Positions 3,477-53,599 of a stretch of 64,000 nt of DNA are shown one piece after another. Each line of letters opens with the position of its first letter. Position 1 is the first letter of the stretch. A program made the translations under genes and the position numbers. The notes beneath the pieces are model-generated. The model was not told the DNA's origin, made no database searches, and saw only the letters and a program-made list of their open reading frames with translations. The stretch is from NCBI GenBank assembly GCA_963669175.1, contig OY769902.1, positions 4,288,001 through 4,352,000 on the forward strand, read 5' to 3'. The stretch comes from a bacterium (GTDB lineage: Bacteria; Electryoneota; Electryoneia; Electryoneales; Electryoneaceae).

Positions 3477-5573
3477 CTACTTTATAAGAACTATCTTCTG
3501 TATTTTTAACATTTTTCCAGATTCTTTCAGCACTAGGTAATATATTCCTGTATTTAACTTATCTAATGATAAAGATATTATACTATTATAACGAGTTATA
3601 CACATTCCTTTTTTCTCTCTTACCATTCTTCCTTCTATATTATATATTTTCATATCTATTATCATTTCTTTATTAGTATACATTTCTATATTTACATTTG
3701 AATTAGATGGTATTGGATATATATTTATTTCTATATTTTCTGGTATTGTATTCGTATTTTTACTTCTTCCTTCCCCCACTGGCAATGAATATCCTATTTC
3801 TATAATATTATTATTTTCATTATTTTCTTCTATTTCATTATAACAATCTAATTCCCAATACATACTATGTTCTTCGTTATAATTTATTTCTCCTTCTTCA
3901 AATGGTCCCCAAAAGAATTGTCCATTTGTAAGCGCGTTTCTTACCCAATTATTATCTGTTTCATATAATTCACCATCTATTCCATATTTTACTTCCCATC
4001 CTATTGCATCTTCTCCTCCTATATTACTGTAATCTAATAACATGTATAGACTATCGTGATTGTTATTATCATCATATTCTATATTATCGTAATTTTCTAC
4101 TTCTGTAAATACTCCATTATGTCTCCATCCTATCCAGGCGTATTCTGCATATAGATCTGCTAATTCGTTATTCCCTGTTGCATATATTGAATTTGACTCC
4201 ACGAAACCAGAGACACCAAAACTATTTTCTGCTCGTATTCGATATTGGTAATAATTACCCTCTGCCACATTATAATCTGGATATGGCCCTTCTTGGTCAA
4301 CAGCGAAATTTGTTCTAAAGCTCCAATTAGTCCATGTTCCTCCTTCTTCTCGCTGACGGCGTTCTAACCTGAATCCGTCTTCATTATCTGAACAATCATC
4401 CCAACTCAATAATATATAGTCATCAGCATTATTATAATAATATTCGCCTAACAGATTATTAGGTTCATCTGGTGGCTCTCCCTGCTCATTTCCTGTTGCA
4501 TATATTGAGTTTGACACCACGAAATCAGAGACACCAAAATCATTTTCTGCTCGTATTCTATATTGGTAATAATTACCTTCTGCCACACTATAATCTGGAT
4601 ATGGCCCTTCCTGGTTAGCAGCGAAATTTGTTCTGAAGCTCCAATTTGTCCATGTTCCTCCTTCCTCTCGCTGACGGCGTTCTAACCTAAATCCTTCTTC
4701 ATTATTCGAACAATCATCCCATGCCAATAAGATATAATCATCACCATTATTATAGTAATATTCTCCAGTAATATCATCTGGCTCATCAGGTGGTTCACCT
4801 TGATTTATATATTTATTTAGTTCTATATCATCTAGATATACTCCATTATAGTCATTTACTGTAGCATCGCTTTGGAAAATAAATGTTATCCATACTTGAT
4901 CTTCGCCGCATACATTTCCAAAATGTGGTGCGTCTGTAAAATCAATAGATAATTGCACCCATCCATTAGAATTTCCACTGACTTGATAATAATAGTAATT
5001 TATACCATTCAAGGCGATTCCATACTTAAAATAATCATAATTAGATTCTGTTTCATAATTTACATAAAAAGTTAATTCCGCATCTGTTGCATCCGACAAA
5101 TCAAAAGGACCATAAGTCATCCAAGCATTCATATCATTTAGATAATGTCCACTGTTTGGGCTTATGCCATCCTCACCACCATCAGCACACCAGCCTCCCC
5201 AATCTCCCCAATGACTATAATGCGATTCATCATCCCAGTATGCATCTACATCTCCAAGGCTAAATATTTCCCAATCGTTCGGAAAGGCACCTTCAAAATC
5301 CTCTTCATGTATATTACACCATTCATCTAGCTCGTCAGATTGTATAATTGTATATGTATATATATTATTACATTTATTATCATTATTGTAATTGTTATTA
5401 AATATTATATTATTAACATCTAAAATAACACTTGCAATTTCTAAATCTTTACTGTAATTTTCTAATTCATTATGGTACAGTTTTTGAATTGCATACACGA
5501 AATGAAATTGAAACAATAGTGAAAAAATGGCGAGCAGTCTCAGGACTGCTTTTTGCAATTTCCCTAACTTCAT
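3477..5573 (-). CDS. Secreted multidomain protein: jelly-roll/adhesin-like domain, 2x Fn3, CARDB-like domain, T9SS-like CTD; AT-rich
   Basis: Signal peptide; SD GGAGG before ATG 5573; C-terminus IYPIPSN...GIYYLVL...KIVLIK. Confidence 0.85.
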   Translation of the reverse strand: MKLGKLQKAVLRLLAIFSLLFQFHFVYAIQKLYHNELENYSKDLEIASVILDVNNIIFNNNYNNDNKCNNIYTYTIIQSDELDEWCNIHEEDFEGAFPNDWEIFSLGDVDAYWDDESHYSHWGDWGGWCADGGEDGISPNSGHYLNDMNAWMTYGPFDLSDATDAELTFYVNYETESNYDYFKYGIALNGINYYYYQVSGNSNGWVQLSIDFTDAPHFGNVCGEDQVWITFIFQSDATVNDYNGVYLDDIELNKYINQGEPPDEPDDITGEYYYNNGDDYILLAWDDCSNNEEGFRLERRQREEGGTWTNWSFRTNFAANQEGPYPDYSVAEGNYYQYRIRAENDFGVSDFVVSNSIYATGNEQGEPPDEPNNLLGEYYYNNADDYILLSWDDCSDNEDGFRLERRQREEGGTWTNWSFRTNFAVDQEGPYPDYNVAEGNYYQYRIRAENSFGVSGFVESNSIYATGNNELADLYAEYAWIGWRHNGVFTEVENYDNIEYDDNNNHDSLYMLLDYSNIGGEDAIGWEVKYGIDGELYETDNNWVRNALTNGQFFWGPFEEGEINYNEEHSMYWELDCYNEIEENNENNNIIEIGYSLPVGEGRSKNTNTIPENIEINIYPIPSNSNVNIEMYTNKEMIIDMKIYNIEGRMVREKKGMCITRYNSIISLSLDKLNTGIYYLVLKESGKMLKIQKIVLIK
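4168..4803 (-). repeat. Intragenic tandem duplication, 2 x 318 bp (106-aa Fn3-like unit)
   Basis: QGEPPDEP...SNSIYATGN is repeated; DNA period is 318 bp (4171 vs 4489). Confidence 0.9.
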
Positions 5574-5711
5574 GGCAACCTCCAAATACTAATTTACAAC
5601 CCAAAAATCCTATGATGTGCTAAATCAAATAAAGGCTTGATAATCTTAATAGTACAAGCGTAACTTCTGGAAAGTTTGCGCAAATGCTGGAAAATTAAGG
5701 AGAGAGACCGG

Positions 5712-8353: not shown

Positions 8354-8356
8354 AGC

Positions 8357-12213: not shown

Positions 12214-13269
12214 ATGAAGAAAGAAGCTGAGTTTACCTTGTCTTGTCCGTTACCGATAGCGGAGTATCCCACCATACAGCAGGCGCATGGTGGCGGGGGT
12301 ACTCTGATGCATCAATTGATTGAGAAGGTGTTTGTCGCTGCTTTCGGAGATGATTCTGTCGAAAGCAGGCACGATGCTGCACGTTTTGATCTTCCTGAAG
12401 GATCATTGGCCTTCACCACAGATTCTTTTGTGGTGAAACCGCTCTTCTTTCCCGGTGGCAATATCGGGTCGCTGGCGATTCACGGAACCGTGAACGATTT
12501 ATCCGCAGCCGGCGCCCAACCACTCTATCTCAGCGCGGGATTTATCCTGGAAGAAGGGCTGCCGATGGAATCGTTGTGGGCCATCGTAACCTCCATGCGG
12601 CATGCCGCGGATGAAGCGGGAGTAAAAATCGTTACCGGCGACACCAAGGTTGTTGAACGTGGTAAGGGTGATGGTGTTTATATCAACACATCCGGCGTAG
12701 GCGTTATTCCTCCGGGCATTCGCATTCACCCGGACCGGATCAGGCCCGGCGATGTGCTATTGGTTAATGGCGATTTGGGACGGCATGGCTCGGCGATCAT
12801 GGCAGCGCGTGAAGATCTGGGCTTCGCCTCCACCATCGAAACCGATTCCGCAGCGTTGAATGGGCTGGTCACAGCGTTGCTTGAAGCTGGAATCGATGTG
12901 CATTGTATTCGTGACCTGACCCGTGGCGGGTTGGGCAGTGCCTTGAATGAGCTGGCCGAAACGGCTGATGTAGGCGTTGAGGTTGACGAAAACACGATCC
13001 GTGTGCGGGATGATGTACAAGCGTTATGTGAAGTCCTGGGGCTTGATCCGTTGTATGTGGCTAATGAGGGACGGATGGTGATCATTGTCCCGGAAGCGGA
13101 AGCCCAGCGTGCGTTGGAAATCATGCGGACAGTTGTAACAGGAGAAGACAGTTTCGTTTGCGGAAAGGTTACCGATTCCGACCGTGGCATAGTGTTGCTG
13201 AAAACCGGGCTTGGTTCTAAACGGGTGCTGTCCATGCTGAGTGGCGAGCAGTTGCCACGTATTTGTTGA
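12214..13269 (+). CDS. hypE: HypE
   Basis: HGGGG, GDTKVV, RDLTRGG and C-terminal PRIC. Confidence 0.97.
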   Translation: MKKEAEFTLSCPLPIAEYPTIQQAHGGGGTLMHQLIEKVFVAAFGDDSVESRHDAARFDLPEGSLAFTTDSFVVKPLFFPGGNIGSLAIHGTVNDLSAAGAQPLYLSAGFILEEGLPMESLWAIVTSMRHAADEAGVKIVTGDTKVVERGKGDGVYINTSGVGVIPPGIRIHPDRIRPGDVLLVNGDLGRHGSAIMAAREDLGFASTIETDSAALNGLVTALLEAGIDVHCIRDLTRGGLGSALNELAETADVGVEVDENTIRVRDDVQALCEVLGLDPLYVANEGRMVIIVPEAEAQRALEIMRTVVTGEDSFVCGKVTDSDRGIVLLKTGLGSKRVLSMLSGEQLPRIC

Positions 13270-13332
13270 CAACGTGAGGCTTTTATATTTGGCTGCTCAC
13301 AGGAATTTGTGTGAATTATCTACGAGTACGTT

Positions 13333-13587
13333 TCGTCAGGTCTTGACGTGATGCCGTTTTCGCGTTCTTCTCCGCAATTTCAGACACCTGTCCGACTTCA
13401 CACATGCTATTTCGCTTGATGGATCGTCATCAGGCATCACGTTGTGACCTGACGACAGCGAGAATGTTGAATCAGGTGGCAGGTCACAACGCGACAATAA
13501 CAGGGCGCGAGGTGGTTTCAGTATCATTGTGCATTCTGGAAAACACAGCAAAAGTCGAAGACGAAATGTCGCGTCAAGACCTGCCAC
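13333..13587. repeat. Two adjacent inverted-repeat-bounded units built from four copies of CAGGTCWYRACGYGA
   Basis: IR pair 13333-13355/13433-13455 (20/23 match) and IR pair 13476-13496/13567-13587 (18/21 match). Confidence 0.8.
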
Positions 13588-13694
13588 AACATCGCCCGGA
13601 TGCACAAATTCTTGTGAGGAACCTCATATATGAATCCTTTGATTGCAATGAAAAACGCTTACACACTCCCCATGTTCTGCTTATATTCCTGCTG

Positions 13695-15547: not shown

Positions 15548-15560
15548 GAAGCATATGGCA

Positions 15561-15705: not shown

Positions 15706-15823
15706 CAATACAGAACAATATTCAGAAACTCCAGGCAGGTAGATCGAGTGCAATAGATTGGTATATTGTTCTGCAAGGCTGGAAAATCCGGCTTACGGAC
15801 CCCAACAAAAAAAGGGACCAGGC

Positions 15824-17985: not shown

Positions 17986-20472
17986 ATGGATAACTGTATG
18001 CGTGTTGCGCTAGCCATTTTGTGCGGACTGATCTGTTTTACTGGCTCAGTTTTCGCGCTTCCTCCTCACCCGGATCTGCTTGAGCAGGTGCGTATGGGTG
18101 AAATAGCTCGTCCCGTTGCGTTTGATGCCACCGACCTTCTGGCGCAAAGCATCCCCCATGTTTCCTATGAACTGGATGAAGAAGTCAATACGATTGTGTT
18201 GCTGGTTTGCTTCAGCGACAGTGTTTGCTCGTTTAATGCACAGGAATTTGATACCCTTTTCTTCAGCAACGATTCCGGCAGCGTCAACCATTATTTCAAC
18301 GATTTGACCGGTGGAGGATTGACCTTTGCCACATCCAGTCTCCCCTCTTTCCTGGGCTGGCGTGGTCTACCGGAATCCAAAGCATGGTACATGAATGACC
18401 AGCAGGGATTGGGCGAATATCCACAGAATTCACAACGTCTGGTAATGGATGCGATTACGCAGGCCGACCCTTTTGTCGATTTCTCTGTGTATGATAATGA
18501 TGGTGATGGCGAAGTTGAGCAGGTGATTATCGTACATGCCGGACCATCCGCACAGCAGACCGGGCAGGCAAACGATCCCTGGAGTTTTACCGGAACAACA
18601 CAATTGCCTGTCGAGGTGGATGATATTGTAATCAACAACTTCATCCTGTTGCCGGAATATGTTTTGACCCATTCTGGCGCGCTTCCCCTGACGGTCGGCC
18701 CACCTGCGATGGAACTGGCCAAATCCTGGTTGGGTATGGTTGACCTCACCGATCCGCTTAATGAGCAGGCCAGTATCGGACAGTGGAGTTTGATGGCGTA
18801 CGGCTGCTGGAACGGTCCTCAGGAAGCAGGAGAATGCCCGGCATGGCCGGACCCATACAACCGTATGCTGGCAGGGCTGACTACGCCCTTCGCTCTCCAG
18901 CGTGACAGCATCAACGCCCTGATTCCCGCTGCATCTTTGAATGATATGGTGTTTCAGTTGTGGCGCGAGGGTGAAGTCGGAACCGAGTATTTCCTTCTGG
19001 AGAACCGCAGGCAAAGCGGGTATAATACGTATCTCCCGGGAGCAGGCCTGTTGTTGTACCATATAGACGAGACGGTTACCACGGGGAATCAATATCCCTG
19101 GTATCCCGGCGGCCCGGACAACGGGCATTTCCTGGTCGCTCTTGAACAGGCGGACAGCCACTGGGATCTGGAAACAGGGACGAATTTCGGCGATGCAGGC
19201 GACCCCTGGCCCGGCTCCACAAACGCACAGGTTTTCGACCAGGGCTCGGTCCCGAACAGCAGATCATACAGCGATGCGTATTCCCGGGTTGAGATACGGA
19301 ATATCTCGACCGCTGATTCGCTCATGCAGGCGATTTTGCGTGTCGGTATCGCCCCGGCGGTCGAAGCCCCGGATAACCTTGCAGCAGCGATCGACCAGAC
19401 GACGGGCGTTGTGACCCTGAACTGGGAATTCGACATCGTTGCCCAGACCGATGAACTTGCCTATGACAACAGCCAGTACACCGGGTTTTATTATTGGAAC
19501 GATGGCACGATGGCGGTTCGTTTTACCCCGCAGTCCATCTGCCAGGTTCTCGCGCTGAAATTCTTCACACGAAATGTTTCCACCTTCGAAGCCCAGGTTT
19601 TCTCTTTCCACGGCAACCAGCCCGACACAACCGCGCAGCATGCAACCCAGGCGACTTCAGAGCATTACAACTGGGTTACGGTTGATGTGGAGAACGGTGG
19701 TCTCTATTACAACACCAGTTTTGTTGCCGGTTTTCATGGCATGGATGAAATCGCCAGCCTTGGCGCGGATGCTTCCATTGAAACGGGAAGAAGCTGGGAT
19801 TATAACGGCGAGGAATGGAGCCAGTGGCCGGAAGCTTACCTGGTCCGTGCCGTGGTGCGCTATCTTGCAACAGGTGAAACAGTTATATTAACTCCTGATG
19901 GTACGTTGCCTGCTGTACAGGCCGCCGACGTAAAATCACCTAGCCTGGCTGACTTTGGCGCCATTCAGAACACAGACGAGCTTGATGAGTTCCTTGAGTT
20001 CAATGTCTACCGAAACTTTGAACTGATCGGGACAACAACAAATATTCTCTACTCGGATACACTGGACGAATTCGGGATGTACCGTTACTACGTAACTGCG
20101 CAACATGACATCGGAGAATCTTCTGCGTCCAACCAGCAATGGGTGCGTTATGAGGACCAGTCACTAGAACAGTGCGACAAAGACCTGCTTCCCGAAAAGT
20201 TCTCCATCGCTTCCGTGTATCCAAATCCATTTAATAACGAGGCTACGGTTACCATCCACCTTCCGGAGTCCGGTTATATGAAACTTGAGGTCTTTAACAT
20301 CCTGGGGGAAACTGCGGGTATCCTGGTCAGTTCTCCTTTTGCCGCAGGCGCCTGGGATTTTGAGATCAATGGCGCGTCTTTGTCATCCGGTATATACCTC
20401 CTTCGCGCAACATTAACCCCCCCCGGATCAAACACGAGAACAGCGTTTCATAAGATGGTCCTGTTGAAATAA
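17986..20472 (+). CDS. Secreted M6 (InhA-like) metalloprotease-fold protein with degenerate active site, split Fn3 and T9SS-like CTD
   Basis: DFSVYDNDGDG, IIVHAG, WSLMAYG, EYFLLENR, GLLLYHIDE, GDAGDPWPG; HExxH position reads MELAK; YPNPFN CTD. Confidence 0.88.
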   Translation: MDNCMRVALAILCGLICFTGSVFALPPHPDLLEQVRMGEIARPVAFDATDLLAQSIPHVSYELDEEVNTIVLLVCFSDSVCSFNAQEFDTLFFSNDSGSVNHYFNDLTGGGLTFATSSLPSFLGWRGLPESKAWYMNDQQGLGEYPQNSQRLVMDAITQADPFVDFSVYDNDGDGEVEQVIIVHAGPSAQQTGQANDPWSFTGTTQLPVEVDDIVINNFILLPEYVLTHSGALPLTVGPPAMELAKSWLGMVDLTDPLNEQASIGQWSLMAYGCWNGPQEAGECPAWPDPYNRMLAGLTTPFALQRDSINALIPAASLNDMVFQLWREGEVGTEYFLLENRRQSGYNTYLPGAGLLLYHIDETVTTGNQYPWYPGGPDNGHFLVALEQADSHWDLETGTNFGDAGDPWPGSTNAQVFDQGSVPNSRSYSDAYSRVEIRNISTADSLMQAILRVGIAPAVEAPDNLAAAIDQTTGVVTLNWEFDIVAQTDELAYDNSQYTGFYYWNDGTMAVRFTPQSICQVLALKFFTRNVSTFEAQVFSFHGNQPDTTAQHATQATSEHYNWVTVDVENGGLYYNTSFVAGFHGMDEIASLGADASIETGRSWDYNGEEWSQWPEAYLVRAVVRYLATGETVILTPDGTLPAVQAADVKSPSLADFGAIQNTDELDEFLEFNVYRNFELIGTTTNILYSDTLDEFGMYRYYVTAQHDIGESSASNQQWVRYEDQSLEQCDKDLLPEKFSIASVYPNPFNNEATVTIHLPESGYMKLEVFNILGETAGILVSSPFAAGAWDFEINGASLSSGIYLLRATLTPPGSNTRTAFHKMVLLK

Positions 20473-38805: not shown

Positions 38806-41800
38806 CTATTGTTTATAGTTCCTCTTCATTGGCAGTTCACGTGCTGCATCTGTTACTGCCCCAATCTTCGCAGCAAAACTGGTACGGTTCTTTATATCAG
38901 CGTCGGTTACCAGATGAACATCCAGCAGCCCCTTGCTGTGATAGCCTGTTCTAAGGAAATTCATTTCATCGAGACACTGGCTCCAGCCATCCAGCCAAAG
39001 CATCAGGTTGTGACGCTTCTCTTCATCCTCGCTAATATGCAACAACACGTCAATATCGCTGCCTGGTCCGGCAGTGCCATTTTTTGTGCTTCCGAATACG
39101 AAGAACGCCTTTACGCCATATTCAACACCATCAAGCTGTTCAGCAATGCGATGCGCCATGCGTAGACGCCATTTCCAGTGATCATCCGAAAAGGGGGGTT
39201 TTTTGGAAGTGCTGGCCATCGTTTCAACCTGTGTGCCTCCCGGCGTACTCAGGATGGCAACCGCCTCATCCAGGTCGGCATTCATGAATACTTTCAGTAC
39301 CTTGCCGTCAGTTACACGTCCGATATCAATAACACGAATTACCTCAGATAATTCGTTGAACTCGGGAAGGATCTCGGACAGAACATTCTCTGAACGCGTC
39401 AGGAACATCTTGTTAAAATGGACGTTCTTTTCGCCCGGATAGAGTGGCAAGTAGCGAATAGAAGCTTCTACAAGATCCTGGAAGAAGTGTGTGCCGAAAG
39501 ACAAATCCGGGACATAATTCCCTTTCGCCATGGCAACTTCGATCAGCATGGCCGTATTGTTGATCTGAGAATACGTAACATCGACACCAAGCTTGATATC
39601 ACCACGGCTTCCCCACCTTCCCGGCCCAATCAGGATAAACTGGCGTTTGGGAAGTTGCTTGTTCAATTCACCAATAGCTTTGCCAATATCCCGTAGCGTT
39701 TTCAGATTCTCCACTTCGCTGTACATCTGCGGGTCAACATAAACAACATGAGTAATATCCGGTACGATACCGTTGGAAACATACTTGTTCGCGCTGAACA
39801 CAATTGAAGTTTCCGGGATATCTTTTGGAATCGGCGCGGGTTTGGATTCCATTGAATAGCTTTGTGGACGGCATTGTAATAGATAGAAGCTCCGGCCATC
39901 GTGCGCAAATTCGATATCCACCGGATACCCCATGCCTTCTTCCAAAGCATCCAGGATTGATTTAATCTCCGCTATAAAATTCGTCTTCGTAACCAGTCCC
40001 TCGAAGGTCACAACAACTTCATCATCTTCGAAATCCAGGTTAAACTGGTTCTTCAGCGAAATGTGGTTGTCCTTGACCACAGACACAACTTTATCCACAT
40101 TCGGGAATTCATCGCCGAATGTTTTCAGGAATTCCTTGATATCGACGGTCTCAAAGTTGTTGGTTTCCAGGTTGATAACATCCATCTTGTTGGGTGCATA
40201 GCGGATGATCTCATCTACGCTGGCGTTGACCCTGAGACCGGGCTGACCGGGCGCCAGCAGGATCGGATAATCGTCACTCAAGCGGTCAACCGCACGTGTC
40301 CCCAATCCGGGAACCAGACGCACGAGACCATCGTCACGCTTGATACGTGGCGACCAGCGGAACTCATTGCTACTGAAGGCAACCCCGGCATACATCGGCA
40401 CATAGTATTTTCCTACCGGCTTCCCAACAACCTCCTGGATAAGTACACCCATTTCCTCATGGAAGTCGATGAGGCCACGTTCGGCACGGTACTCGATCGG
40501 ATCTGCGCCAAAGGTCGATGCGTACACTTCAGCTATCGCATCCATCAACGCTTCCAGACGTTCCCATTTTGTCCCACGATTCGCCAGGAACAGGCTGACA
40601 TATTTACCTGAGAAAGCGGTGCCCAACCTGTCCTCAAGAAGGCTGGAACTGCGGACAATCAACGGAACATCGCCGAAATCATCCAGCGCCATGGAAAGCC
40701 CCTGAACCATTTCAGGGGTAAAACGGCTATTCTTAAATAATTGAATAATATGAGGATACTCTTGTCGTACCAGCCCTATTTCCTTGTACTTCTGCTCTGT
40801 AACTTCACCCAGGTTGTTATGATTCATGAAGGAATGAAGACCATCAGAAGTAATGTACCATGTCTTGGGTGTTTTGATATTTTTGAGTTCAGGTTTCTCC
40901 TTGCTGAACTTGGTCAGCATTCGATATGCCAGGAAAAGCCCTGACCCCTTACCACCCAGTTTTCCATGACTGTTCGGGGGATGAATCAGGCGGGGAATCA
41001 GGTCAACGAAGTCTTCAATATCAACATAATCTTTCGCAATACGGATAAATTCAAGGTGATCGGACAGGAAGCGGCGGGTAAGGTGAACCCTTGCCCCTTT
41101 CGCAGCAGAGGGGGACAATTCCACACCCTGTTGCATCAGGTGGTGGAATCTTCGCAGGGCATCTGCCAAATCCCCCAGGGAACTGTCCAGGTTTACCAGT
41201 GTTCGGCTGAAGAAGCTTGATTTATCTTCATGCATCCATCGTTGCACGACCTGAAGAATCTCTTCATCCGGCAGTGTCTTGCCGGCAATTTTGAAAATAT
41301 CCTCACTCAAATCCATAATTTCTATGCGTTTGCGCTGCATTGGGCGGTTTCCACCACCATTCAGCGTCTCGGATTTTTCATCAGCGCTCAGTTTTTCCAG
41401 CAACGCATCCGCTTCGTGAATACCGTGCCAGCAGAGGTAATTCAACATTTTGCGAGCGATGCCCAGGTACAGGTCTTTGTCGGTTCGCCTGAGAAGATCT
41501 ACGACAATTTTCCATTCAACCGTCTTGTCTTCGTTCAACCTTTCATGCGCCTGGTTCCAATCACCGACCATTTGCCTGAGTTGCTGATGCAGAATGAAAT
41601 GGCCCAGGCGGTCAGCGATGGTGGTAATTAGTTTGCGTTCTTCCTTGAGGAACGGCCCCTCGTCAGCAGCAGGCATCTCACGAGTATAAAACACCTTAAC
41701 CGACCCCAGGACCTGGTCATGCACTTTCAGGTCTGCTTCCTGCACCCATGGCGTGGGGATAGAATCGCTGGTCTTGAACTCTTGTCCATCAAAAGTGATC

Positions 41801-41991
41801 ATGGCTTCACAGATGTTGACAAACTGCCAACCGGGTGGAATAGCACGCAGGATGCCGCGAATCACGACTTCGACATCCTGTTCCGGATCATTGGTCAACT
41901 CTTCTATGCGATAAAGGCAATTCAGCTCTTTTGCTCGTTCACGTAACTGATCAAGAACATAGTGGCTGCGTCCATCCCCGATATCAACCAT
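38806..41991 (-). CDS. PEP/pyruvate-binding (PPDK_N) protein with N-terminal GAF-like and C-terminal nucleotidyltransferase domains
   Basis: LRERAKELNCLY; LGGKGSGL, VRSSSLLED, PGLGTRAV, DIEFA, LLQCRP, SFGTHFFQD; FGS..SDIDV. Confidence 0.88.
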   Translation of the reverse strand: MVDIGDGRSHYVLDQLRERAKELNCLYRIEELTNDPEQDVEVVIRGILRAIPPGWQFVNICEAMITFDGQEFKTSDSIPTPWVQEADLKVHDQVLGSVKVFYTREMPAADEGPFLKEERKLITTIADRLGHFILHQQLRQMVGDWNQAHERLNEDKTVEWKIVVDLLRRTDKDLYLGIARKMLNYLCWHGIHEADALLEKLSADEKSETLNGGGNRPMQRKRIEIMDLSEDIFKIAGKTLPDEEILQVVQRWMHEDKSSFFSRTLVNLDSSLGDLADALRRFHHLMQQGVELSPSAAKGARVHLTRRFLSDHLEFIRIAKDYVDIEDFVDLIPRLIHPPNSHGKLGGKGSGLFLAYRMLTKFSKEKPELKNIKTPKTWYITSDGLHSFMNHNNLGEVTEQKYKEIGLVRQEYPHIIQLFKNSRFTPEMVQGLSMALDDFGDVPLIVRSSSLLEDRLGTAFSGKYVSLFLANRGTKWERLEALMDAIAEVYASTFGADPIEYRAERGLIDFHEEMGVLIQEVVGKPVGKYYVPMYAGVAFSSNEFRWSPRIKRDDGLVRLVPGLGTRAVDRLSDDYPILLAPGQPGLRVNASVDEIIRYAPNKMDVINLETNNFETVDIKEFLKTFGDEFPNVDKVVSVVKDNHISLKNQFNLDFEDDEVVVTFEGLVTKTNFIAEIKSILDALEEGMGYPVDIEFAHDGRSFYLLQCRPQSYSMESKPAPIPKDIPETSIVFSANKYVSNGIVPDITHVVYVDPQMYSEVENLKTLRDIGKAIGELNKQLPKRQFILIGPGRWGSRGDIKLGVDVTYSQINNTAMLIEVAMAKGNYVPDLSFGTHFFQDLVEASIRYLPLYPGEKNVHFNKMFLTRSENVLSEILPEFNELSEVIRVIDIGRVTDGKVLKVFMNADLDEAVAILSTPGGTQVETMASTSKKPPFSDDHWKWRLRMAHRIAEQLDGVEYGVKAFFVFGSTKNGTAGPGSDIDVLLHISEDEEKRHNLMLWLDGWSQCLDEMNFLRTGYHSKGLLDVHLVTDADIKNRTSFAAKIGAVTDAARELPMKRNYKQ

Positions 41992-43741
41992 GCTGTATCA
42001 CTCCCCGTCCTGTACGGCCATCGACCAGAATCGACAACGGTTTATCAATACGCACTCTGCGAACGTATTCGGTTTCCTCTTCAGCAGGTAAAGCATCCAG
42101 CCAGTCCCAACGTATGGGATAGCTGGAGTTATGATGTACAAAGAAGTAGCTGACTTCAAAGCTTGATAGATTGTGGAAAAAATGCGAGCCCTGGCTGGGT
42201 TCAACATTCATGCTCGGCAGGGTAGCTTCCACAATCGCTTTCGCGCCTGCAATCTGGCTCCATTCCACCGGTGTTCCCAGCCAGTGATCACTACTGCCCC
42301 AGCGCCCGAATCCCATAAGCAGGAAAGCCCGGTCTTCGTTTAATAAGGTCTGGTTCATAGCCGCCACATGCTTCGCTATCAAAGGCGTATGCTTCGCTTC
42401 GAACACTTCCGGGCGAACATACACTATATCACGTATCGTGTTCACGTCCCCATTACCCAGCACCTTTTCGGAAGCGACGAGTGCATTGGGAGCCGACAGC
42501 GTTTCGACCGGAACTTCGACTTCCTCTTTGGATACGACCATGGGACGCACCTGCAGGAATCCCAGTCTCGCCGGGGTGCCATGGACGGGGTCCAATGTCA
42601 GGGCGAACTCGATCTCCACTTCACTTTCCAGCGCTTCTTCACAAAGCCGGATCAATTCCTGTACGATTTTATTCAGGGGAACGGTATTGAGTTGCAGGAT
42701 CGGTGCGAACGTGAGGATTCGTGGTCCGGCCGGTCCTGTCCCGGGAGAAAGCCGATCATTGGCTGCATCGTATGTGGAAGCAGTGTGTTTTAATACACCA
42801 TCCGCTTCCGCTTCATCAAGACCGTTCTGCACCAGGAATTCAGCTTCGTTGACAGGATCATACGCCGGTGGTTTTCCCAGGTTCACTGCCCAGAATGTCG
42901 TCTGAGTGGCTTTCATCAAATCGCCAACATTGCTATAAGGCGGCGGAAGTTTCGGCCATGCCGGAACGTAACTCCAGCAAACACCACCGTCTACAATCGC
43001 CTTGCCCAGCCCGAGCGCAAGATTGACCACGCCCTGTTCTGGCTTGGCGCGTCCGAACGGGTAAAAATTGAATGATTTCGCCACACCGGAAATGGTCGGA
43101 TACCATTTTTCTTCATGTTGCTGACCGACCACTTTTTGGATTACGACGGCCATCTTTTCGTCAGCGATGCTTTTCCCCGTGGTGGCGATGTAATCCTTGG
43201 CGCCTTTGAAGAATGTCGAGGCGAAAACGAACTTGACCGCTTCCATGAGTTTCTTGAAGCGTTCGTCCGTAGAATGCTGGTTATTCGGGATCATTTTCGT
43301 GGCGAAAACACCGGCGAACGGCTTAAACATGGCGTCTTCGAGCATGCTGGAGGAGCGTACCGCGAGAGGCGTTTTCACTTCGCTGACCAGCGCCCGCAAA
43401 TCTCCGGTCCACTGGTAGGGGAAACTCGCCCGCTGAAATTCCATCGCGATGTATTCATCCGATGCATCCGATAAGGCAACGTCATACAGCTTGTTCTGCT
43501 CCATGAAAGCATCGAACACAGCAGTAGAAAGAACCGTCACCGCGGGGATGGAAACCTTCACATCCGGAAAGCTGGAATGCGGGAATTTGTCCTGGATTGT
43601 ATCGTGAATAAATGCGAGTCCACTGGCTTTACCACCGAGCTCACCTTCCCCGATGAAGGTAAACGCACGCTCAGATTGCAGAGCGTGACGATCAAAATGA
43701 AAACGATGGCCGAGTGGAGCGCTTAAATCCTTTTTATCCAT
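41984..43741 (-). CDS. PEP/pyruvate-binding (PPDK_N) protein
   Basis: LGGKASGL, VRSSSMLED, LGLGKAIV, EIEFA, LQVRP and SQGSHFFHN. Confidence 0.9.
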   Translation of the reverse strand: MDKKDLSAPLGHRFHFDRHALQSERAFTFIGEGELGGKASGLAFIHDTIQDKFPHSSFPDVKVSIPAVTVLSTAVFDAFMEQNKLYDVALSDASDEYIAMEFQRASFPYQWTGDLRALVSEVKTPLAVRSSSMLEDAMFKPFAGVFATKMIPNNQHSTDERFKKLMEAVKFVFASTFFKGAKDYIATTGKSIADEKMAVVIQKVVGQQHEEKWYPTISGVAKSFNFYPFGRAKPEQGVVNLALGLGKAIVDGGVCWSYVPAWPKLPPPYSNVGDLMKATQTTFWAVNLGKPPAYDPVNEAEFLVQNGLDEAEADGVLKHTASTYDAANDRLSPGTGPAGPRILTFAPILQLNTVPLNKIVQELIRLCEEALESEVEIEFALTLDPVHGTPARLGFLQVRPMVVSKEEVEVPVETLSAPNALVASEKVLGNGDVNTIRDIVYVRPEVFEAKHTPLIAKHVAAMNQTLLNEDRAFLLMGFGRWGSSDHWLGTPVEWSQIAGAKAIVEATLPSMNVEPSQGSHFFHNLSSFEVSYFFVHHNSSYPIRWDWLDALPAEEETEYVRRVRIDKPLSILVDGRTGRGVIQHG

Positions 43742-44806: not shown

Positions 44807-47089
44807 TCATTTAAGCAATACAATTCGTCGCAAAGGAGCTGCTTTGCCATCATGTGTAGCACGTAAATAGTACATCCCCGACGCCAGCTCATGTGCATTG
44901 ACAGTCACAAGATGAATCCCTGCGTTTTGGACACCAAGCGTATGTTTCTGCACCACCTGCCCCAGGATATTCACCAGCTCCAGCTCAACGGTTCCTGCTT
45001 CAGGAAGATGAACCTCAACAACGCTCGTGGCATTAAACGGGTTGGGATAAGCTTCACTGATAAAGAATTCTTGCGGAAGTGACAACTTGTCCTCATCCAC
45101 ATCAAGGTTCCAGATGAGTTCCAGCGGCCCCGCCGGTTCCGATTCGCCGTTATCATACTGGGCTGTAACCCAATAGTGATAAGTGCCGTACTGAACAATG
45201 CGGTCGATATACTCATGGTCCACTGGCGATGCAATCAGGGTGCTGTCACGATAAACATGATAGGACAGAAAGTCATCCAGTTCGTCATCCGATCCGGCTT
45301 GCTGTATCATGCTTCCGCCACGATCCAGACGTACCTGCGCACGGATGAAATAGGTCTGCGGCCAGGCGCTCCAGGTACTCCCATTGAAGTCAAAACAACG
45401 CTCATTGTTATCATCATCATAGCCCAGCCGAACAGTCGTATTCAGCGAACCGAAGGCAACGATAAAATCACTCCCGAACACAAGGTTCTGGTCAATTGAG
45501 AAGTCATGCCAGCCATTGGAGGATACAGTTTCTGTACTGGAATATAACAGGGAATCACCGGGCATACCCGTAATCTCGTTCCAGTTGAAAACCTTGACCT
45601 GGAACGGTTGATCGGAACCGGTTACCCGCAGGTAATAACTGACCCTGAGTAAACGGCACGAATCGGACGGGCTCATCCGTTGTCCCAGCGTGTACCCCTG
45701 GAAATCGTAATACCCACTCGGCCAGCCATCATCATAGATAAGGTTTTCCGTAGGCCCTTCGATATCCGGCGGTTCCCAGTCGAGGAAGACATAACCGTAT
45801 TGTTCATCCAGCTCGGCGGTCAAGTCAACAGGTGACGGTAACGCTGCCGGTCCTGCAAGGCTGAACTCGGCATAAACAGTCGTATCCAGATCGGGAATTT
45901 CAAGCGGTGTGTTCAGAGCCGGAATCGTATCATTCCAGGCGGGATAGATGATCTGGGCTTCGTTGATCTGGCCTGAATGCCCATTTCCGGGATGATTGTC
46001 ACGTACCCCGGCAAACATCGGGTTCAGACGATAACGATCCAGCATCCAGGCCGCGTCGGTAAGATCAAGTACGATTTCAACCGGTGGTACGGCAACACGA
46101 GCGTAAGCGTACGCATCCATCCATGAGAAGAACGTCCGGCTCCACCGTCTGTCTTCAACCGTTCCCAGCCCGACGTCCAGCGAGATGCCATACTTGTCGG
46201 TATGGGAGATATCCATAGTGGCCAAAAAACTGGGTTCATAATCTGTCAAATCATCTGCATGGAACGCAAATCCGGATGAGGTAGTCAAACTTGTCATGGC
46301 ATCATAGGTAACCCAGCAGTAGCCGGAAAGTCCCCAAACGGTGCCGACACTGTTCACCACCTTGAAAGCGCCGAGCCCGTCATCATTGACATGATTATCC
46401 ATAAAACCCACAACCGGCAGGACAATGGTCCCTTCCGGGTTGCCGTAAATTTCAGACAGGCAGTAGTTTCCACCATATTCATCAATGTTGGTGAAGTTGC
46501 CGTAAACATTCAACTCCACCAGTGCGATATGACCGTCAAGAAGCAGGGATTTGAGCTGTTCCACACCTGTAGTGTCCAGATCGATGTAATACCACGGCCC
46601 GGTACGGTATTCCATGGCGTTGATCCAGTCGGGACGCGTGGGCCAGGTGGTGTAGTCCTCCGCATCGTAGGGCATATCGACCATCGTGGCGCACCCATTA
46701 AAACGCAGCAACTCCATGACATCAGCAAGATCACTGTCCTGATTGATGCCGTGGTTGGTCAGGTTAAACACAAATGCGGGACTGAAACGGTGAGAAGAGG
46801 TTGACACATCCCAGTGTCGCTCTTCCCATTCCTGGTAGGTTTTGTAATAATATGCCACAGACCATGCCGTGGCGGAATTCTGGCTGCCACGATTGCCGAC
46901 TGCGGGAAGGTGTGCGGAGTTGTCCGCCGCCTCATCCAGTTCATACGATGTATGGACAGGATAATCGCTCGGCAGTAGCCACTCCGGCAGCTCTTGCCCA
47001 TATACCCGGACATTTGCCGAAAAGGAAAACGCGACCGTTATCAATACCAACATCACTATTTTCAAGATGTTGCTTCTATCCATCCCCAT
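44807..47089 (-). CDS. Secreted papain-like (C1A) fold protein with degenerate active site, split Fn3 and T9SS-like CTD
   Basis: LPAVGNRGSQNSATAW, FSPAFVFN, GAFKVVNSVGTVWGLSGYCWVTY; YPNPFN CTD. Confidence 0.88.
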   Translation of the reverse strand: MGMDRSNILKIVMLVLITVAFSFSANVRVYGQELPEWLLPSDYPVHTSYELDEAADNSAHLPAVGNRGSQNSATAWSVAYYYKTYQEWEERHWDVSTSSHRFSPAFVFNLTNHGINQDSDLADVMELLRFNGCATMVDMPYDAEDYTTWPTRPDWINAMEYRTGPWYYIDLDTTGVEQLKSLLLDGHIALVELNVYGNFTNIDEYGGNYCLSEIYGNPEGTIVLPVVGFMDNHVNDDGLGAFKVVNSVGTVWGLSGYCWVTYDAMTSLTTSSGFAFHADDLTDYEPSFLATMDISHTDKYGISLDVGLGTVEDRRWSRTFFSWMDAYAYARVAVPPVEIVLDLTDAAWMLDRYRLNPMFAGVRDNHPGNGHSGQINEAQIIYPAWNDTIPALNTPLEIPDLDTTVYAEFSLAGPAALPSPVDLTAELDEQYGYVFLDWEPPDIEGPTENLIYDDGWPSGYYDFQGYTLGQRMSPSDSCRLLRVSYYLRVTGSDQPFQVKVFNWNEITGMPGDSLLYSSTETVSSNGWHDFSIDQNLVFGSDFIVAFGSLNTTVRLGYDDDNNERCFDFNGSTWSAWPQTYFIRAQVRLDRGGSMIQQAGSDDELDDFLSYHVYRDSTLIASPVDHEYIDRIVQYGTYHYWVTAQYDNGESEPAGPLELIWNLDVDEDKLSLPQEFFISEAYPNPFNATSVVEVHLPEAGTVELELVNILGQVVQKHTLGVQNAGIHLVTVNAHELASGMYYLRATHDGKAAPLRRIVLLK

Positions 47090-48498: not shown

Positions 48499-49560
48499 TT
48501 ATACGCAGGCAGGATTGTAGTCTTGTTCTTTGACCAGCATGGCCCACAGTATCACGGCTAGTTTTCGTGCCATGGCGACGATCGCCACTTTCCGTGTTTT
48601 CCCGGCATGGATCGCATCGTATTTCTTCTTTGCATACGGATCTTTTTGCACCCAACGCCACGCAGCTTCGACCAATAGTTTTCGTAGATGGGACGGTCCC
48701 CAGTGGGTAATGTGTCCCATATGGCGTGTGTTGGCGCTTGACCATTCACACGGCGTCAAGCCAAGATGTGCGCCGACTTGCTTACCGGATGCGAAGCGTT
48801 CGGGACGATACATCTCGGTCACGAAGGCGTTCACGGTCAACTCGCCCACGCCTTTCACCTGGCACAGGCGCTGGGTACGGTCCCGATACGTTGCGGACGC
48901 ATTCATCGCCTTGATCGCTTTGGTGATCACCTTGAGTTGCTGTTCAATGGCCTCCAGCTCATCGAGAGCAACATCAATGGCTATCCGTGTCGCGGCCAGA
49001 CAATCACACGTTCGCAACCAGCGCCGGTATTCCTTTGTCCAATAGCGTTGCGGCGGAAACGGTGACTGTAAACCGTGAAACAATAGCAGACTCTTGATTC
49101 GGTTTTTGACCCGAACGCGATCATTCATCACCTGGTCACGGGTTCGAGACAACTGACGATCCGCCTCTTCCTGTTCTGTAGGGACATGTACCCAGGTACG
49201 GGGCGGTGTCCAGAACATGTGGGCCAAGGTCAGGGCATCCAGATGATCGGTCTTCTGCTGCTTCGCTTGCGCCCCTTTGGGAACTTGGCTGGGCGGCGCG
49301 ATCTGGCAGTCAACACCTTGGCCGATCAGGTAACGACAGAGGCCAAAGCCGGTGAGGCCCGCTTCATAACACGCCCACATGCGGCAGTTGGGAAAACGGG
49401 CAAAGAAGCCTTCCCAGGCGGCTGAGTCATGCTTGATCCGATTCTCAAAGAGCACTTCACCAGTCTGGGTGTCGAGCACAACGGCGAAAGAAGTCTGCGA
49501 ATCAACATCCAGACCTATAGACAATGAACGGTCCGCTGCAATAACTTGGTTCTTCGACAT
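48499..49560 (-). CDS. IS110-family DEDD recombinase/transposase
   Basis: GLDV, YEAG, KTDHLDA, GVG, GLTP..WSS and VAMARKL. Confidence 0.95.
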   Translation of the reverse strand: MSKNQVIAADRSLSIGLDVDSQTSFAVVLDTQTGEVLFENRIKHDSAAWEGFFARFPNCRMWACYEAGLTGFGLCRYLIGQGVDCQIAPPSQVPKGAQAKQQKTDHLDALTLAHMFWTPPRTWVHVPTEQEEADRQLSRTRDQVMNDRVRVKNRIKSLLLFHGLQSPFPPQRYWTKEYRRWLRTCDCLAATRIAIDVALDELEAIEQQLKVITKAIKAMNASATYRDRTQRLCQVKGVGELTVNAFVTEMYRPERFASGKQVGAHLGLTPCEWSSANTRHMGHITHWGPSHLRKLLVEAAWRWVQKDPYAKKKYDAIHAGKTRKVAIVAMARKLAVILWAMLVKEQDYNPACV

Positions 49561-49855: not shown

Positions 49856-52800
49856 CTAGCGAACAAGCGTGATCTTACGAACAGTGTTCATCTTACCGGG
49901 AACATGTGCCCTGATAAAGTAAATCCCACTGGAAAGGTTCGTGGCATCAAATGTGAAAGCATGGTATCCCTGTGCGAAACGGCCCTGCGCCAGGACAGAA
50001 ACCTGCTCGCCAAGGATGTTGAAGACACGGACATTCAGCTCGGCTGCATCGGGCAGGCCGATTACAGCGGTCATGGTCGGGTTGAACGGATTCGGGTAAG
50101 CACGTGCAATGCTGTACTCGGTCGGAACTGTTGAGAACAGATTCTCGTTGACGCCGACACCATCCCAATTAACAGAAGCTGTGTCCGAATTGGCCGAATT
50201 ACCTTCTACGAACGATGCAACAACATAATAGGAATAGGCGCCAACTGCTTCACCGGTCAGATCATCAATGAAACCAATCGTATCCACTTCAGCCAATGCA
50301 TCACCATTACGGAAGATGATAAATTCATCGAATGTGTACGTTTCATCATCACCGGTAAACGTCCATGAAAGCTCGACAGAAGGACTACCATCTTCACGCG
50401 TAGCGGACATGCTTGCCGGCGCTTCCAGGATAGGCGCGTTGAAATCTTCAGCCATGGAAGGGATAATCTGAACCACATTGTTGTACAGGCCGATCGGACC
50501 GCGTATAACAATCCAGTCATCTTCAGCAAAATCGCTCAGGTCGAGATCGGCGGCTTCGTTGATGTAGACCTGAACAGCTCCGGAACCGTCATCAATGGAC
50601 AGGGCATACGATCCTGTTTCAGGATCGGATTCGAGCTGCCCCAGGATTTCCGCCCAGGCGCCCTCAAGTGCTTGCTGTCCGGCAATCGTAGCGGTTGTGC
50701 CGGTGTAAGGTGTCGGCAGATCATTGCCCGTACTGAGAACTTCGTACTCGAAATACACGAGTTCAGTTATACCGTTATACTCAACCACTTGCCCGGTAAC
50801 CTGGATTTGATCTCCACGGTTCAGGTTGTCAGCGGGGTCAATAGCTTCGGAATCATACAACATCACTCCGTAACCGCTTTCATCCTGGATGTAACAATCA
50901 AAGCGATCAGTGTGGATGGAATTGGTTGGCAAGGTCACAGTACCTGTTGTGGTAACCCATGTGCCCGCTTCAACCGAGGTCTGAATGTTTTCAATCGAGT
51001 AGGTAACGATAAGGGCCAGGGTAATGTCGATGACCTCGAAATCACCGGCTTCCACTTCGATGCCAGCCTGAATATAAGGTGCATAATCTTCAATCACTGC
51101 AACCAGGTCATAGGTCGCAGGCGCCAACTCGTCAAATTCGTAGTAGCCGAGTCTGTCCGTGTAGACAGTCTGGAGAAGGCCTTCATCAGGTTGAATGGCA
51201 ACCAGCACGTTTTCCATCGGGTTGTCGTCGGAATCAATGATCGTTCCGGAAATGTTGCCAGTTGTATAGGCAGAGAGTGTGATATCGATGGTTTCAATAT
51301 CACCGGCGCTCAAGTCGATGCCATTCTGCGTATAGGGTATATAGCCAGCAAAATCAGTGCTCAGGCTATAAATCTCAGGAACAATATCAGCGATTTCGTA
51401 ATAACCGTGCGCATCTGACGTTGTTGTTCGTGTGTCACCGGTATTGGGTGTCATCGTGACAGTTACACCTCCCAGCGCGTTTCCGTCATCATCGGTTATA
51501 ACACCAGATACATTGGCAGTGGTTGACCAGATCATGGTGATGTTGATAACCTCAGCCTGCCCGGTTACCAGTTCAATGCCATCCTGTACATACGGATCGT
51601 AACCATCATATTCCGCACGCAGACTGTATGTGCCTGGTGTCAGGTCCAACAATTCGTAATGTCCGGATCCGTCTGAAGTGGTCACGAATGGAAATCCCGT
51701 TTCCGGTGTCAGCGAGACATTGATCTGCATCAAGGGGTGGGTTGCTTCATCCTGGATCGTACCGGAAAGGGAAGCATTCGTACCAGTCGTGAGGTTAAAA
51801 TCGACAACGATAAAATCACCGGCTTCCACTTCAATCCCTTCCTGTGTACCAGTGACATATCCATCGTATTCAGCGCTCACGGAATAAGTACCCGGCGAAA
51901 GCGAACCGAACCGGTAATGTCCCTCTTCATCCGTGAAGACCATCAACGGCAATCCGCCCTGGGGAGTCAGCGAAACAGTTGCGTTTTCAATGGCATCGCC
52001 ATCCGCATCCATGACCGTACCCGAGATGCTGCCGGTTGTCCAGTCATAGTATATGCGTCCGGAAACTTCGCCATCGAGAATCGGCATATTATCATCAACA
52101 CCATAGTATACCTGAAGCCCGATCTCGCCGTCCTGATCTTCATAACCTATGGCTACGATAGCATCTTCCGGGTGCGCTGAAATTGTATTATAGTTGACAA
52201 CAATTTCTCTGGTATCGAAATCCATAACACACTGAAAGGTGTTTTCCGTATCATCCGTATTGTAGTAAACAACTTCGGACCACGTAATAACCAACTTTCC
52301 ATCCACAACTTCAGCATAAACCGCGCCATCAGCACCTTCATCAGCGGGGTTTAGGTCGGCGCCAAAGATGGACAGCAAGCTGTTCGGTTCGAATTCATTC
52401 GGTGTGGGATTGGAATAGGGATATCCAACCGCATCGCTGTTTGTAAAGGAAATCCTGCCGTTGGAATTGACATACATGTCTCTGTAAGCAGCATCGTACC
52501 AGGTGAAATCACCCAGGCCATAATCCGCAAAAGTCAGCAACACACTTGCGTCATCACCCAGTTCCAGGTCCGTAGCATTTTCTGAAACCGCCTGCCACGA
52601 ATACTCAATGACTTCGAAATAGTGCATGCCTTCTTCAGGCCACGGATCAAGTTCAACATTGACTGTATTAAAGCCATCAGACAATTCTATTGCCTCAGCA
52701 TAAGCGTAGTAGCCGGATGCGCTGGGAATTTCAACCGAGTTCTGTCCGATCACACAGCCTTCAATGCTGTAACCGCCGCGGTCATCCGTTGTTGCACTAT

Positions 52801-53599
52801 GCGAGCCGATAGTTACGACAACTCCTTCAAGCGCAGCGCCTGTTTCAGAGTCTGTTACGGTTCCAGAAAGATTGGCTGTACCGGAAGGCGCCTCATCTTC
52901 TTCTGAGTGAACAAGAACATTATCAACTACCCAGAAGTAAGCATAGTTGGCGTCATAATAACGGAACCTGATCTGGACTTCACTGTTGCCGGCAGCTTCT
53001 TCCGAAATGTCCAGGTTGTTGATGTTGTCTTCACTGTCTTCAAGATAAAACTCAAGGACGTTGACCCATGTATCGCCACCATCCACAGTGACATCAACAT
53101 CGCAAACCTCTTCATCGTAGTACCAGAAGAAGCTGGAAAAGGAAAGATAAACTGTTTCCAAATCCGAACAATCAAACACAGGAGATATCAACTGTTCATC
53201 CAGGTCGACTTGCCCCATATTATCCGAATCAACGATGGCAAACTCGCTATCAAATCCTTCAATAATTCTGGTTCCGAAGTTTCGCCGCCACGTATAGCCA
53301 TCATCAGAACCATCGACAACGATCCAATGTTCGGGGATTCCATTTTCAAAGGTTTCGTACAGGATAGTTTCATCCAGTTCGCCCCGACGCGGAGTCCAAC
53401 CACTACGATCTCCAGCGGCTTCAACGCGATCCAGGATTTCCGGGTGTTCTTTCAATAGCAGGTTTTGCTGTGGGGTTAAAACGTGGTTCTGCCATACCGC
53501 AAGCTGCAGCTCTTTCAATTCTTCACGCGATGCTGCAAAAACGCTTGTCACCAGTAGTAGGCAAATGCCGAGTGAAAGTAAAGCTTTTCGATGAAACAT
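49856..53599 (-). CDS. Large secreted adhesin-like protein: adhesin jelly-roll, NIDO-like, 5 carboxypeptidase-regulatory-like repeats, OB folds, Fn3, T9SS-like CTD
   Basis: SD GGAGG before ATG 53599; signal peptide; repeated xSGTxxD..G.Y....PGTY; YIQDESG; AYPNPFNP CTD. Confidence 0.88.
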   Translation of the reverse strand: MFHRKALLSLGICLLLVTSVFAASREELKELQLAVWQNHVLTPQQNLLLKEHPEILDRVEAAGDRSGWTPRRGELDETILYETFENGIPEHWIVVDGSDDGYTWRRNFGTRIIEGFDSEFAIVDSDNMGQVDLDEQLISPVFDCSDLETVYLSFSSFFWYYDEEVCDVDVTVDGGDTWVNVLEFYLEDSEDNINNLDISEEAAGNSEVQIRFRYYDANYAYFWVVDNVLVHSEEDEAPSGTANLSGTVTDSETGAALEGVVVTIGSHSATTDDRGGYSIEGCVIGQNSVEIPSASGYYAYAEAIELSDGFNTVNVELDPWPEEGMHYFEVIEYSWQAVSENATDLELGDDASVLLTFADYGLGDFTWYDAAYRDMYVNSNGRISFTNSDAVGYPYSNPTPNEFEPNSLLSIFGADLNPADEGADGAVYAEVVDGKLVITWSEVVYYNTDDTENTFQCVMDFDTREIVVNYNTISAHPEDAIVAIGYEDQDGEIGLQVYYGVDDNMPILDGEVSGRIYYDWTTGSISGTVMDADGDAIENATVSLTPQGGLPLMVFTDEEGHYRFGSLSPGTYSVSAEYDGYVTGTQEGIEVEAGDFIVVDFNLTTGTNASLSGTIQDEATHPLMQINVSLTPETGFPFVTTSDGSGHYELLDLTPGTYSLRAEYDGYDPYVQDGIELVTGQAEVINITMIWSTTANVSGVITDDDGNALGGVTVTMTPNTGDTRTTTSDAHGYYEIADIVPEIYSLSTDFAGYIPYTQNGIDLSAGDIETIDITLSAYTTGNISGTIIDSDDNPMENVLVAIQPDEGLLQTVYTDRLGYYEFDELAPATYDLVAVIEDYAPYIQAGIEVEAGDFEVIDITLALIVTYSIENIQTSVEAGTWVTTTGTVTLPTNSIHTDRFDCYIQDESGYGVMLYDSEAIDPADNLNRGDQIQVTGQVVEYNGITELVYFEYEVLSTGNDLPTPYTGTTATIAGQQALEGAWAEILGQLESDPETGSYALSIDDGSGAVQVYINEAADLDLSDFAEDDWIVIRGPIGLYNNVVQIIPSMAEDFNAPILEAPASMSATREDGSPSVELSWTFTGDDETYTFDEFIIFRNGDALAEVDTIGFIDDLTGEAVGAYSYYVVASFVEGNSANSDTASVNWDGVGVNENLFSTVPTEYSIARAYPNPFNPTMTAVIGLPDAAELNVRVFNILGEQVSVLAQGRFAQGYHAFTFDATNLSSGIYFIRAHVPGKMNTVRKITLVR

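Follow-up and report, generated by a model that had tools for sequence, protein, structure and literature searches.

The ELD[ED] motif at domain boundaries of predicted type IX-secreted proteins in Electryoneota: a possible recognition site in some FCB lineages

The stretch of DNA considered here (the window) comprises 64,000 nucleotides from a bacterium of the phylum Electryoneota (assembly GCA_963669175.1, contig OY769902.1, positions 4,288,001 to 4,352,000 of the forward strand) and encodes four predicted cargo proteins of a type IX secretion system (T9SS), A to D, in which the tetrapeptide ELD[ED] recurs at the junctions between domains (Table 1). The phylum belongs to the Fibrobacterota-Chlorobiota-Bacteroidota (FCB) superphylum and is described in PMC9324843 as rich in secreted proteases. 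All four proteins contain a T9SS type-A sorting domain (PF18962/TIGR04183) as their C-terminal domain (CTD), with scores exceeding the curated Pfam and NCBIfam cut-offs, and all four begin with a hydrophobic segment ending in small residues that resembles a Sec signal peptide, as judged by reading of the sequences and a crude script. Protein A runs from its signal peptide through an Asn-rich leader of about 52 residues, the ELDE motif, a MAM-like domain with a weak InhA-like MAM match, and two 106-residue repeats to the CTD. The metalloprotease domain of protein B is recovered by TIGR03296 (E = 2e-28, below the curated cut-off), and the protein has 459 homologs at E<=1e-5; the homologs of protein C carry PF00112. 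In protein D the signal peptide is followed by a helical leader of about 50 residues with an LTPQQ motif, ELDE, a cleaved-adhesin/MAM-like domain, five CarboxypepD_reg repeats, an OB-like domain, an Fn3-like domain and the CTD. All four are acidic (Asp plus Glu 13-18%), and in each of them ELD[ED] lies about 19-52 residues past the signal peptide. The surface-lipoprotein export signal of Bacteroidota consists of acidic residues right after the lipobox Cys; no lipobox is present in the four proteins. A GldE/CorC-like gene is the only candidate for T9SS machinery inside the window.

The initial annotation of this DNA had listed seven copies of the motif, six at domain junctions and one possibly fortuitous, and had stated that the motif persists with different codons in the AT-rich gene and, by eye, is missing from proteins without a CTD. 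All seven translate as claimed, and each of these points stands. Given the Asp, Glu and Leu content of each protein, 0.26 copies are expected in the four CTD proteins against the seven seen, and none of 20000 shuffles reached even five copies (the maximum was four). ELDE is the commonest tetrapeptide of the four proteins, with six copies against three for the YPNP of the CTD, and the remaining 11 arrangements of these four residues occur 0.09 times on average. The 51 other open reading frames (ORFs) of the window, which were called mechanically and surely include some that are not genes, hold no copy in 15451 residues, against 0.77 expected. As the codons differ between copies, the signal resides at the protein level, and a DNA-level explanation such as a repeated 12-mer or a recombination site is ruled out. 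ELD[ED] is hence non-random and selected in the protein. Three of the window copies read DELD, and in 79 contexts the motif is preceded 57 times by N, D, G or S and five times by R. Six of the seven copies are junction copies; the seventh, C3, falls, by alignment to the model of protein B, on the end of Fn3 strand A, is absent from the closest ortholog of protein C (P0002), and is probably due to chance. The description of the four proteins as otherwise different does not survive: B and C have in common a homologous C-terminal module of about 300 residues (32% identity) and the N-terminal junction context H-[VT]-S-Y-ELDE, and both A and D run, after the motif, into an xxFExxxPxxW start of MAM-like or cleaved-adhesin-like type. 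Since the module is homologous, B2 and C2 represent one ancestral position, and with these shared contexts the seven copies amount to about three or four independent ones.

Table 1. Cargo proteins, motif copies, modules and neighboring features; positions refer to the window unless a related locus (L) is named
Feature	Position	Strand	Remarks
Protein A	3477..5585	-	702-residue ORF, likely start Met5
Copy A, ELDE, residue 85	5322..5333	-	IQSD-ELDE-WCNIHEEDFEG, directly before MAM-like start
Protein B (P0024, 824 residues)	17986..20472	+	M6 (immune inhibitor A-like) metalloprotease, split-Fn3 module, T9SS CTD
Copy B1, ELDE, residue 62	18169..18180	+	last Glu starts first beta-strand of M6 domain
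Split-Fn3 module of B	19318..20205	+	strands A-B, ~135-residue beta-sandwich insert, ~26-residue disordered linker, ELDE, strands C-G
Copy B2, ELDE, residue 665	19978..19989	+	between disordered linker and strand FLEFNVYR
Protein C (P0001, 760 residues)	44807..47089	-	papain-family (C1) peptidase, split-Fn3 module, T9SS CTD
Split-Fn3 module of C	45065..45862	-	as in B, insert (~135-170 residues across the two modules) has no Pfam match
Copy C1, ELDE, residue 50	46931..46942	-	HTSY-ELDE-AADNSAHLP, start of C1 peptidase domain
Copy C2, ELDD, residue 603	45272..45283	-	before strand FLSYHVYR; position homologous to B2
Copy C3, ELDE, residue 426	45803..45814	-	Fn3 strand A / A-B turn
Protein D	49856..53617	-	1253-residue ORF, likely start Met7
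Copy D, ELDE, residue 80	53369..53380	-	Pfam Cleaved_Adhesin match starts at residue 84, 4 residues after motif
CTD-less family, L006	8933..10528		
CTD-less family, L008	9107..10531		
CTD-less family, L009	8993..10531		
CTD-less family, L010	9017..10525		
CTD-less family, L014	9119..10522		
CTD-less family, L015	9185..10180		
CTD-less family, L016	86..880		
Eighth family member, L013	9119..10885		with T9SS CTD
IS701-family transposase fragment	2..583	+	at window edge
IS110-family transposase	48499..49560	-	intact, between genes C and D
PPDK_N ORF	38806..41991	-	C-terminal nucleotidyltransferase domain in addition
PPDK_N ORF	41984..43741	-	adjacent to the preceding ORF

The structural setting of the motif was examined in AlphaFold2 models of protein B. 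The model of residues 445-828 (36-row alignment, mean predicted local distance difference test score (pLDDT) 85) shows Fn3 strands at model positions 19-26 and 31-37, a beta-sandwich insert at 56-191, a linker at 196-221 with pLDDT<50, the ELDE at 221-224 without secondary structure, and the strands of 225-278, of which FLEFNVYR (225-232) is the first, followed by the rest of the Fn3 and the CTD. Sandwich strands thus lie on both sides of an inserted folded domain, in agreement with the split Fn3 described in the initial annotation. A Foldseek search of the PDB with the module returned Fn3 arrays; for the insert, Foldseek against the PDB and an Atlas look-up gave only generic Fn3 or beta-sandwich matches, and a sequence search of the PDB with protein B gave no entry. 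In the full-length model (121 rows; its low-confidence module part was left unused) the N-terminal segment 21-48 is confident (pLDDT about 83), the loop 49-54 falls below 50, ELDE occupies 58-61 and the first strand of the catalytic domain 61-72. As modeled, both B copies close a flexible segment and touch the next strand, and the motif would typically stand 0-3 residues before the first beta-strand of the following domain. It can be summarized as a selected short linear motif with an E-L-D core, usually N, D, G or S before it and a hydrophobic residue after it.

The junction copies are retained in the nearest orthologs. The respective closest relatives, P0002 (55% identity to C) and P0025 (50% identity to B and encoded in the syntenic locus L001), each keep both the N-terminal and the module copy, as does P0228, which aligns with B over its full length at 33% identity. 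The linker preceding the module motif measures about 24 and about 70 residues in the B/P0025 pair, being about three times longer in P0025. On the evidence of these alignments, the motif is kept at 33-55% identity while the linkers upstream of it diverge. Among the matches listed, none of the other 21 homologs of the C1 peptidase has ELD[ED], the sequence at that place being YDD-SCDNSAHLPP, and only four of 120 M6 proteins have it anywhere, with one copy inside a CTD. The full ELDE at the M6 junction is found only in B, P0025, P0028 and P0228, most M6 homologs showing unrelated residues there. A subfamily of M6 proteins of other lineages shows R[SA]LDE[ND]IN in the column of B1, implying that three of the four B1 residues predate the motif. 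The acidic residues at the same M6 and C1 peptidase junctions elsewhere (RSLDEN; YDD-SCDNS) suggest an old maturation point whose sequence was later sharpened and may have drifted along with that of its reader. A general enrichment of LDE in the N-terminal regions of FCB cargo was not observed, since one of 44 proteins with a similar CTD has it and its distribution is limited to a single M6 subfamily. The distant homologs of the C1 peptidase (P0003-P0018) retain a Cys, in xDD-S-C-DNSAHLPP, immediately ahead of the catalytic domain; this position is Ala or Ile in C (window 46900-46960, minus strand) and P0002, and the arrival of ELDE may have coincided with the loss of a disulfide or Cys-switch.

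At E<=1e-3, 2171 representatives of the B/C module emerged from an exhaustive profile search, and in 83 of the proteins examined 96 full modules were counted. The split-Fn3 module is apparently a large, unnamed family. Some giant proteins of 3000-6000 residues match its profile in up to 36 stretches, mostly with the Fn3 repeat of the second half. After clustering at 50% identity, 148 new proteins were present among the matches listed, and 29 of these hold 43 copies of ELD[ED] against 8.8 expected, most of them directly before the re-entry strand in the form [NSG]ELD[ED][FLW]x[EH][YF]x[VI]YR. The majority form of the re-entry is xR[DE]L-LGYNVYR; ELD[ED]F-xE[YF]xVYR occurs in 23 of the 148. Compared with the usual split Fn3 next to T9SS CTDs, the ELD[ED] form is thus a minority, and it goes together with N-terminal copies, which took no part in the selection of these proteins. 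Such copies precede M6 domains (P0228, P0025, P0028), a C1 peptidase domain (P0002), MAM-like starts (P0282, P0294 and the ORF at 17094-18203 of L012), the GGPDxxGY domain (P0203, P0220) and an unnamed domain (P0229), with a CTD present in P0228, P0282, P0203, P0220 and P0229. Among representatives with a signal peptide, as judged by a crude script, an N-terminal copy is found in four of the 16 with an ELDE-type module against one of the 92 with other module types (Fisher p = 0.0015). Tandem doubles, NELDELDEF and ELDDGELDEL, were also encountered, as would be expected of a recognition site.

The phyletic spread of the motif was explored through 16 loci, one genome per species, collected by a scan with a pattern derived from a 5-row alignment of the module copy. 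They come from a Calditrichaeota metagenome-assembled genome (MAG), Ca. Electryonea clarkiae and other MAGs. Because the scan pattern is itself the module copy, module counts in these loci are biased and only the N-terminal and flanking counts are independent. Among the CTD proteins of the loci, a strict N-terminal copy is present in the B ortholog alone. The 184 ORFs of these loci without a CTD contain 13 copies in all against 3.1 expected, which falls to roughly chance level after removal of eight module copies of a mostly CTD-less family and of one junction copy, LD-ELDE-DTLVFFDDFEGE, at residue 47 of a signal-peptide protein. The family is built in the order of signal peptide, Fn3 strand A, an insert resembling 3-keto-disaccharide hydrolases (PF06439), a linker, NELDEFVEYRIYR and a further beta domain, and its linker is long and conserved (DRSxEPxRGE...AGxPxDxPP). 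A search by CTD similarity with B recovered no other protein of the 5.45-Mb window genome and 51 cargo proteins of other lineages, which, being picked by this similarity only, served as a control set. They contain three copies against 1.08 expected, all in a single Electryonea protein that has NH-ELDD-G-ELDE-LVWQEDFE and one internal copy; the other 50, including proteins from Ignavibacteria, Gemmatimonadota, Bacteroidota, Fidelibacterota and Krumholzibacteriota, have none. The motif is accordingly restricted to some FCB lineages, being seen, besides the window genome and its relatives, in Ca. Electryonea clarkiae, a Calditrichaeota MAG and other MAGs. Its carriers there are secreted multidomain proteins, most of them T9SS cargo.

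Several features of the cargo genes and their surroundings deserve mention in their own right. Gene A, rich in Asn codons, lies in a 36% GC stretch within a window of about 50% GC, and its tandem repeats (ORF residues 262-367 and 368-473) are identical at 91 of 106 positions; GC content and repeats together suggest a recent duplication, a foreign origin, or both. The LTPQQ of the leader of D (ORF residues 47-51, window 53477-53491, minus strand) is an LTxxQ-type motif like that of the periplasmic proteins CpxP and Spy, with no supporting Pfam hit, and LTPxx- or LTxxQ-like stretches also occur in the leaders of P0243, P0273 and one Electryonea protein in L004. Gene order is conserved between L001 (2548-10498) and the window (12214-20472), both with a HypE-like gene, a CNNM/CorC "GldE-like" gene, a periplasmic binding protein, a beta-carbonic anhydrase and the M6 cargo B, which indicates that B is a stable chromosomal gene and no recent arrival. 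Transposase genes lie at the edge of the window and between cargo genes C and D. The two large adjacent ORFs with PPDK_N (phosphoenolpyruvate-utilizing, ATP-binding) domains, the longer of which also has a nucleotidyltransferase domain, make an unusual pairing.

Given the above observations, the best explanation, which we favor tentatively, is that ELD[ED] constitutes a lineage-restricted linear recognition site, probably for processing. At least five unrelated domain types follow the motif, so that no single fold explains it, and this argues for a linear signal that would be read in trans. Endopeptidases being the commonest kind of reader, the most likely one would be an extracytoplasmic endopeptidase, which would take off the leaders at the N-terminus and nick the long linker leading back into the split Fn3, so that two chains would stay together through the shared beta-sandwich. 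The candidate bond is ELD|x or E|LD, and a metalloprotease preferring Leu at P1' and cutting at E|LD would fit the E-L-D core equally well; a Glu-specific cut behind the fourth residue is disfavored by the ELDR variant. Since the whole M6 subfamily keeps xLDE at its own N-terminal junction, the protease B is itself a candidate reader.

Several results weigh against processing at this site. No clan-CD or other candidate protease was detected in the 63 window ORFs scanned or in the 56 scanned of the 121 longer ORFs without a CTD in the 16 related loci. Ten of the 19 CTD proteins in these loci lack any copy; conversely, a module copy is carried by a family in which seven members have no detected CTD and only the eighth has one. 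Against a strict form of the motif, three cargo proteins of L004 in Ca. Electryonea clarkiae show ELDR, ELDR and EIDE one residue before GGPD. The motif of P0220 lies three residues after the predicted signal-peptide cut, leaving almost nothing, or no leader, to remove. The last residue of the B1 motif is already in a strand according to DSSP, and in 84% of 90 sampled Fn3 domains the residue aligned with the motif Asp is Arg, which implies that this position is structurally constrained whatever the lineage. Of the lineage-wide code envisaged in the initial annotation, conservation in orthologs and occurrence in a restricted FCB set are upheld, universality among CTD proteins is not.

The most serious competitor, possible though rather doubtful, is a structural cap or metal-binding junction without cleavage, in which the acidic residues and the Leu would cap the first strand or bind Ca2+ and thereby make the boundary that follows a floppy segment more rigid in secreted proteins of high acidity. 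The interdomain linkers of cadherin type have acidic Ca2+-binding motifs (DxNDN, LDRE), and ELDE resembles them in being a short acidic motif before the first strand of a beta-sandwich domain, but differs from them in that it also occurs at N-termini without an upstream domain. The constraint on the Fn3 position in other lineages, the abutting or entry of a strand in the models of B, the place of the P0220 motif right after the signal peptide, the acidity of the proteins, and the origin of one motif-bearing genome in a record named for a deep brine site are all consistent with such a cap. Against it, the same four residues stand before at least five unrelated folds, related folds of other lineages manage without the motif, the ELDE-type Fn3 has no fixed compensating basic residue (Arg at +14 in only 35% of 20), and tandem doubles would be odd for a cap.

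Hitch-hiking, whereby the shuffling of cassettes of leader, linker and domain between paralogous cargo genes would have carried along a functionless seam, appears unlikely. The module and eight-residue context shared by B and C, the common domain type after the motif in A and D, and the insertion sequence (IS) elements beside the cargo genes are what such shuffling would leave, but the differing codons, the survival of the motif at 33% overall identity despite changed flanks and linker lengths, and its occurrence before unrelated domains in several genomes speak against a passive seam.

Caspase motifs of the xExD or DELD type have Glu at P3 and Asp at P1. The initial annotation had inferred maturation by a clan-CD, caspase-like, Asp-specific protease cutting at ELD|x; the selected boundary motif underlying this proposal is borne out, whereas the protease, the cut after Asp and the assignment to clan CD are unsupported, and we regard such an enzyme as very unlikely. 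The invariant E-L-D would fit P3-Glu and P1-Asp, the variable residue after Asp (E, D or R) would fit a tolerant P1', and the DELD reading of three window copies is in line with this. The resemblance to caspase P4-P1 is one of sequence; the setting is extracytoplasmic and bacterial, and no caspase-like gene is present in the ORFs scanned, the search of the 63 window ORFs for C25, C14, C11 and C13 peptidases being empty, as had been stated for the window, and the loci ORFs scanned likewise giving no clan-CD protease. To our knowledge, cleavage by the clan-CD enzymes of bacteria follows Arg/Lys, Asn or Leu and not Asp, and in the M6 subfamily LDE is kept but the Glu is not. A review names the gingipain-like PorU as a further participant in the removal of gingipain prodomains (PMC10202324), which favors a clan-CD reader, but the preference reported for PorU, small residues such as Gly, Ala and Ser following the cut (PMC11969387), is a misfit to E, D or R and renders PorU a poor candidate. 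The most specific form of the processing reading, in which a dedicated endopeptidase reads E-L-D, cuts after Asp, matures the T9SS secretome of an FCB clade and nicks the split Fn3, likewise seems highly improbable. Finally, chance, which the richness of the proteins in Asp, Glu and Leu might favor, is refuted by the shuffles and the scarcity of the other orderings for the six junction copies and is likely only for C3.

If ELD[ED] is a processing site, its closest counterpart would be found in Porphyromonas gingivalis, where the junctions are marked by Arg/Lys and are read by the gingipains themselves. The gingipain and adhesin cargo of this T9SS resembles the present proteins in having N-terminal prodomains and multidomain bodies processed at junctions, and in the periplasm it is the prodomain that maintains the latency of the enzyme (PMC10202324). 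No published description of the ELDE motif was found, searches on T9SS propeptides showed nothing pertinent in titles or abstracts, and the available parts of the T9SS accounts PMC10202324 and PMC11969387 do not mention it. Unlike the P. gingivalis junctions, the motif here is E-L-D-[EDR] and comes from lineages outside Bacteroidota; a gingipain-type Arg/Lys at the junction bond is not seen, the motif being acidic and preceded by R in only those five of the 79 contexts. By analogy, it may work like the known junction processing of T9SS polyproteins, with a different sequence in different phyla.

Outside Porphyromonas, we know of almost nothing on the maturation of T9SS cargo at the N-terminus or between domains. 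Were the motif a structural cap instead, it would still be useful for marking where domains meet and for telling apart one subfamily of the split-Fn3 module. Should a dedicated endopeptidase exist, cutting at ELD|x would represent a specificity of caspase type that is undescribed for bacteria, and peptidases such as B and C would be two-chain enzymes joined only by a shared beta-sandwich. As a recognition site, this four-residue boundary signal would predict mature N-termini, could allow multidomain cargo from uncultured FCB phyla to be divided into its functional parts, and may serve as bait in the hunt for its reader, be it an enzyme or a partner.

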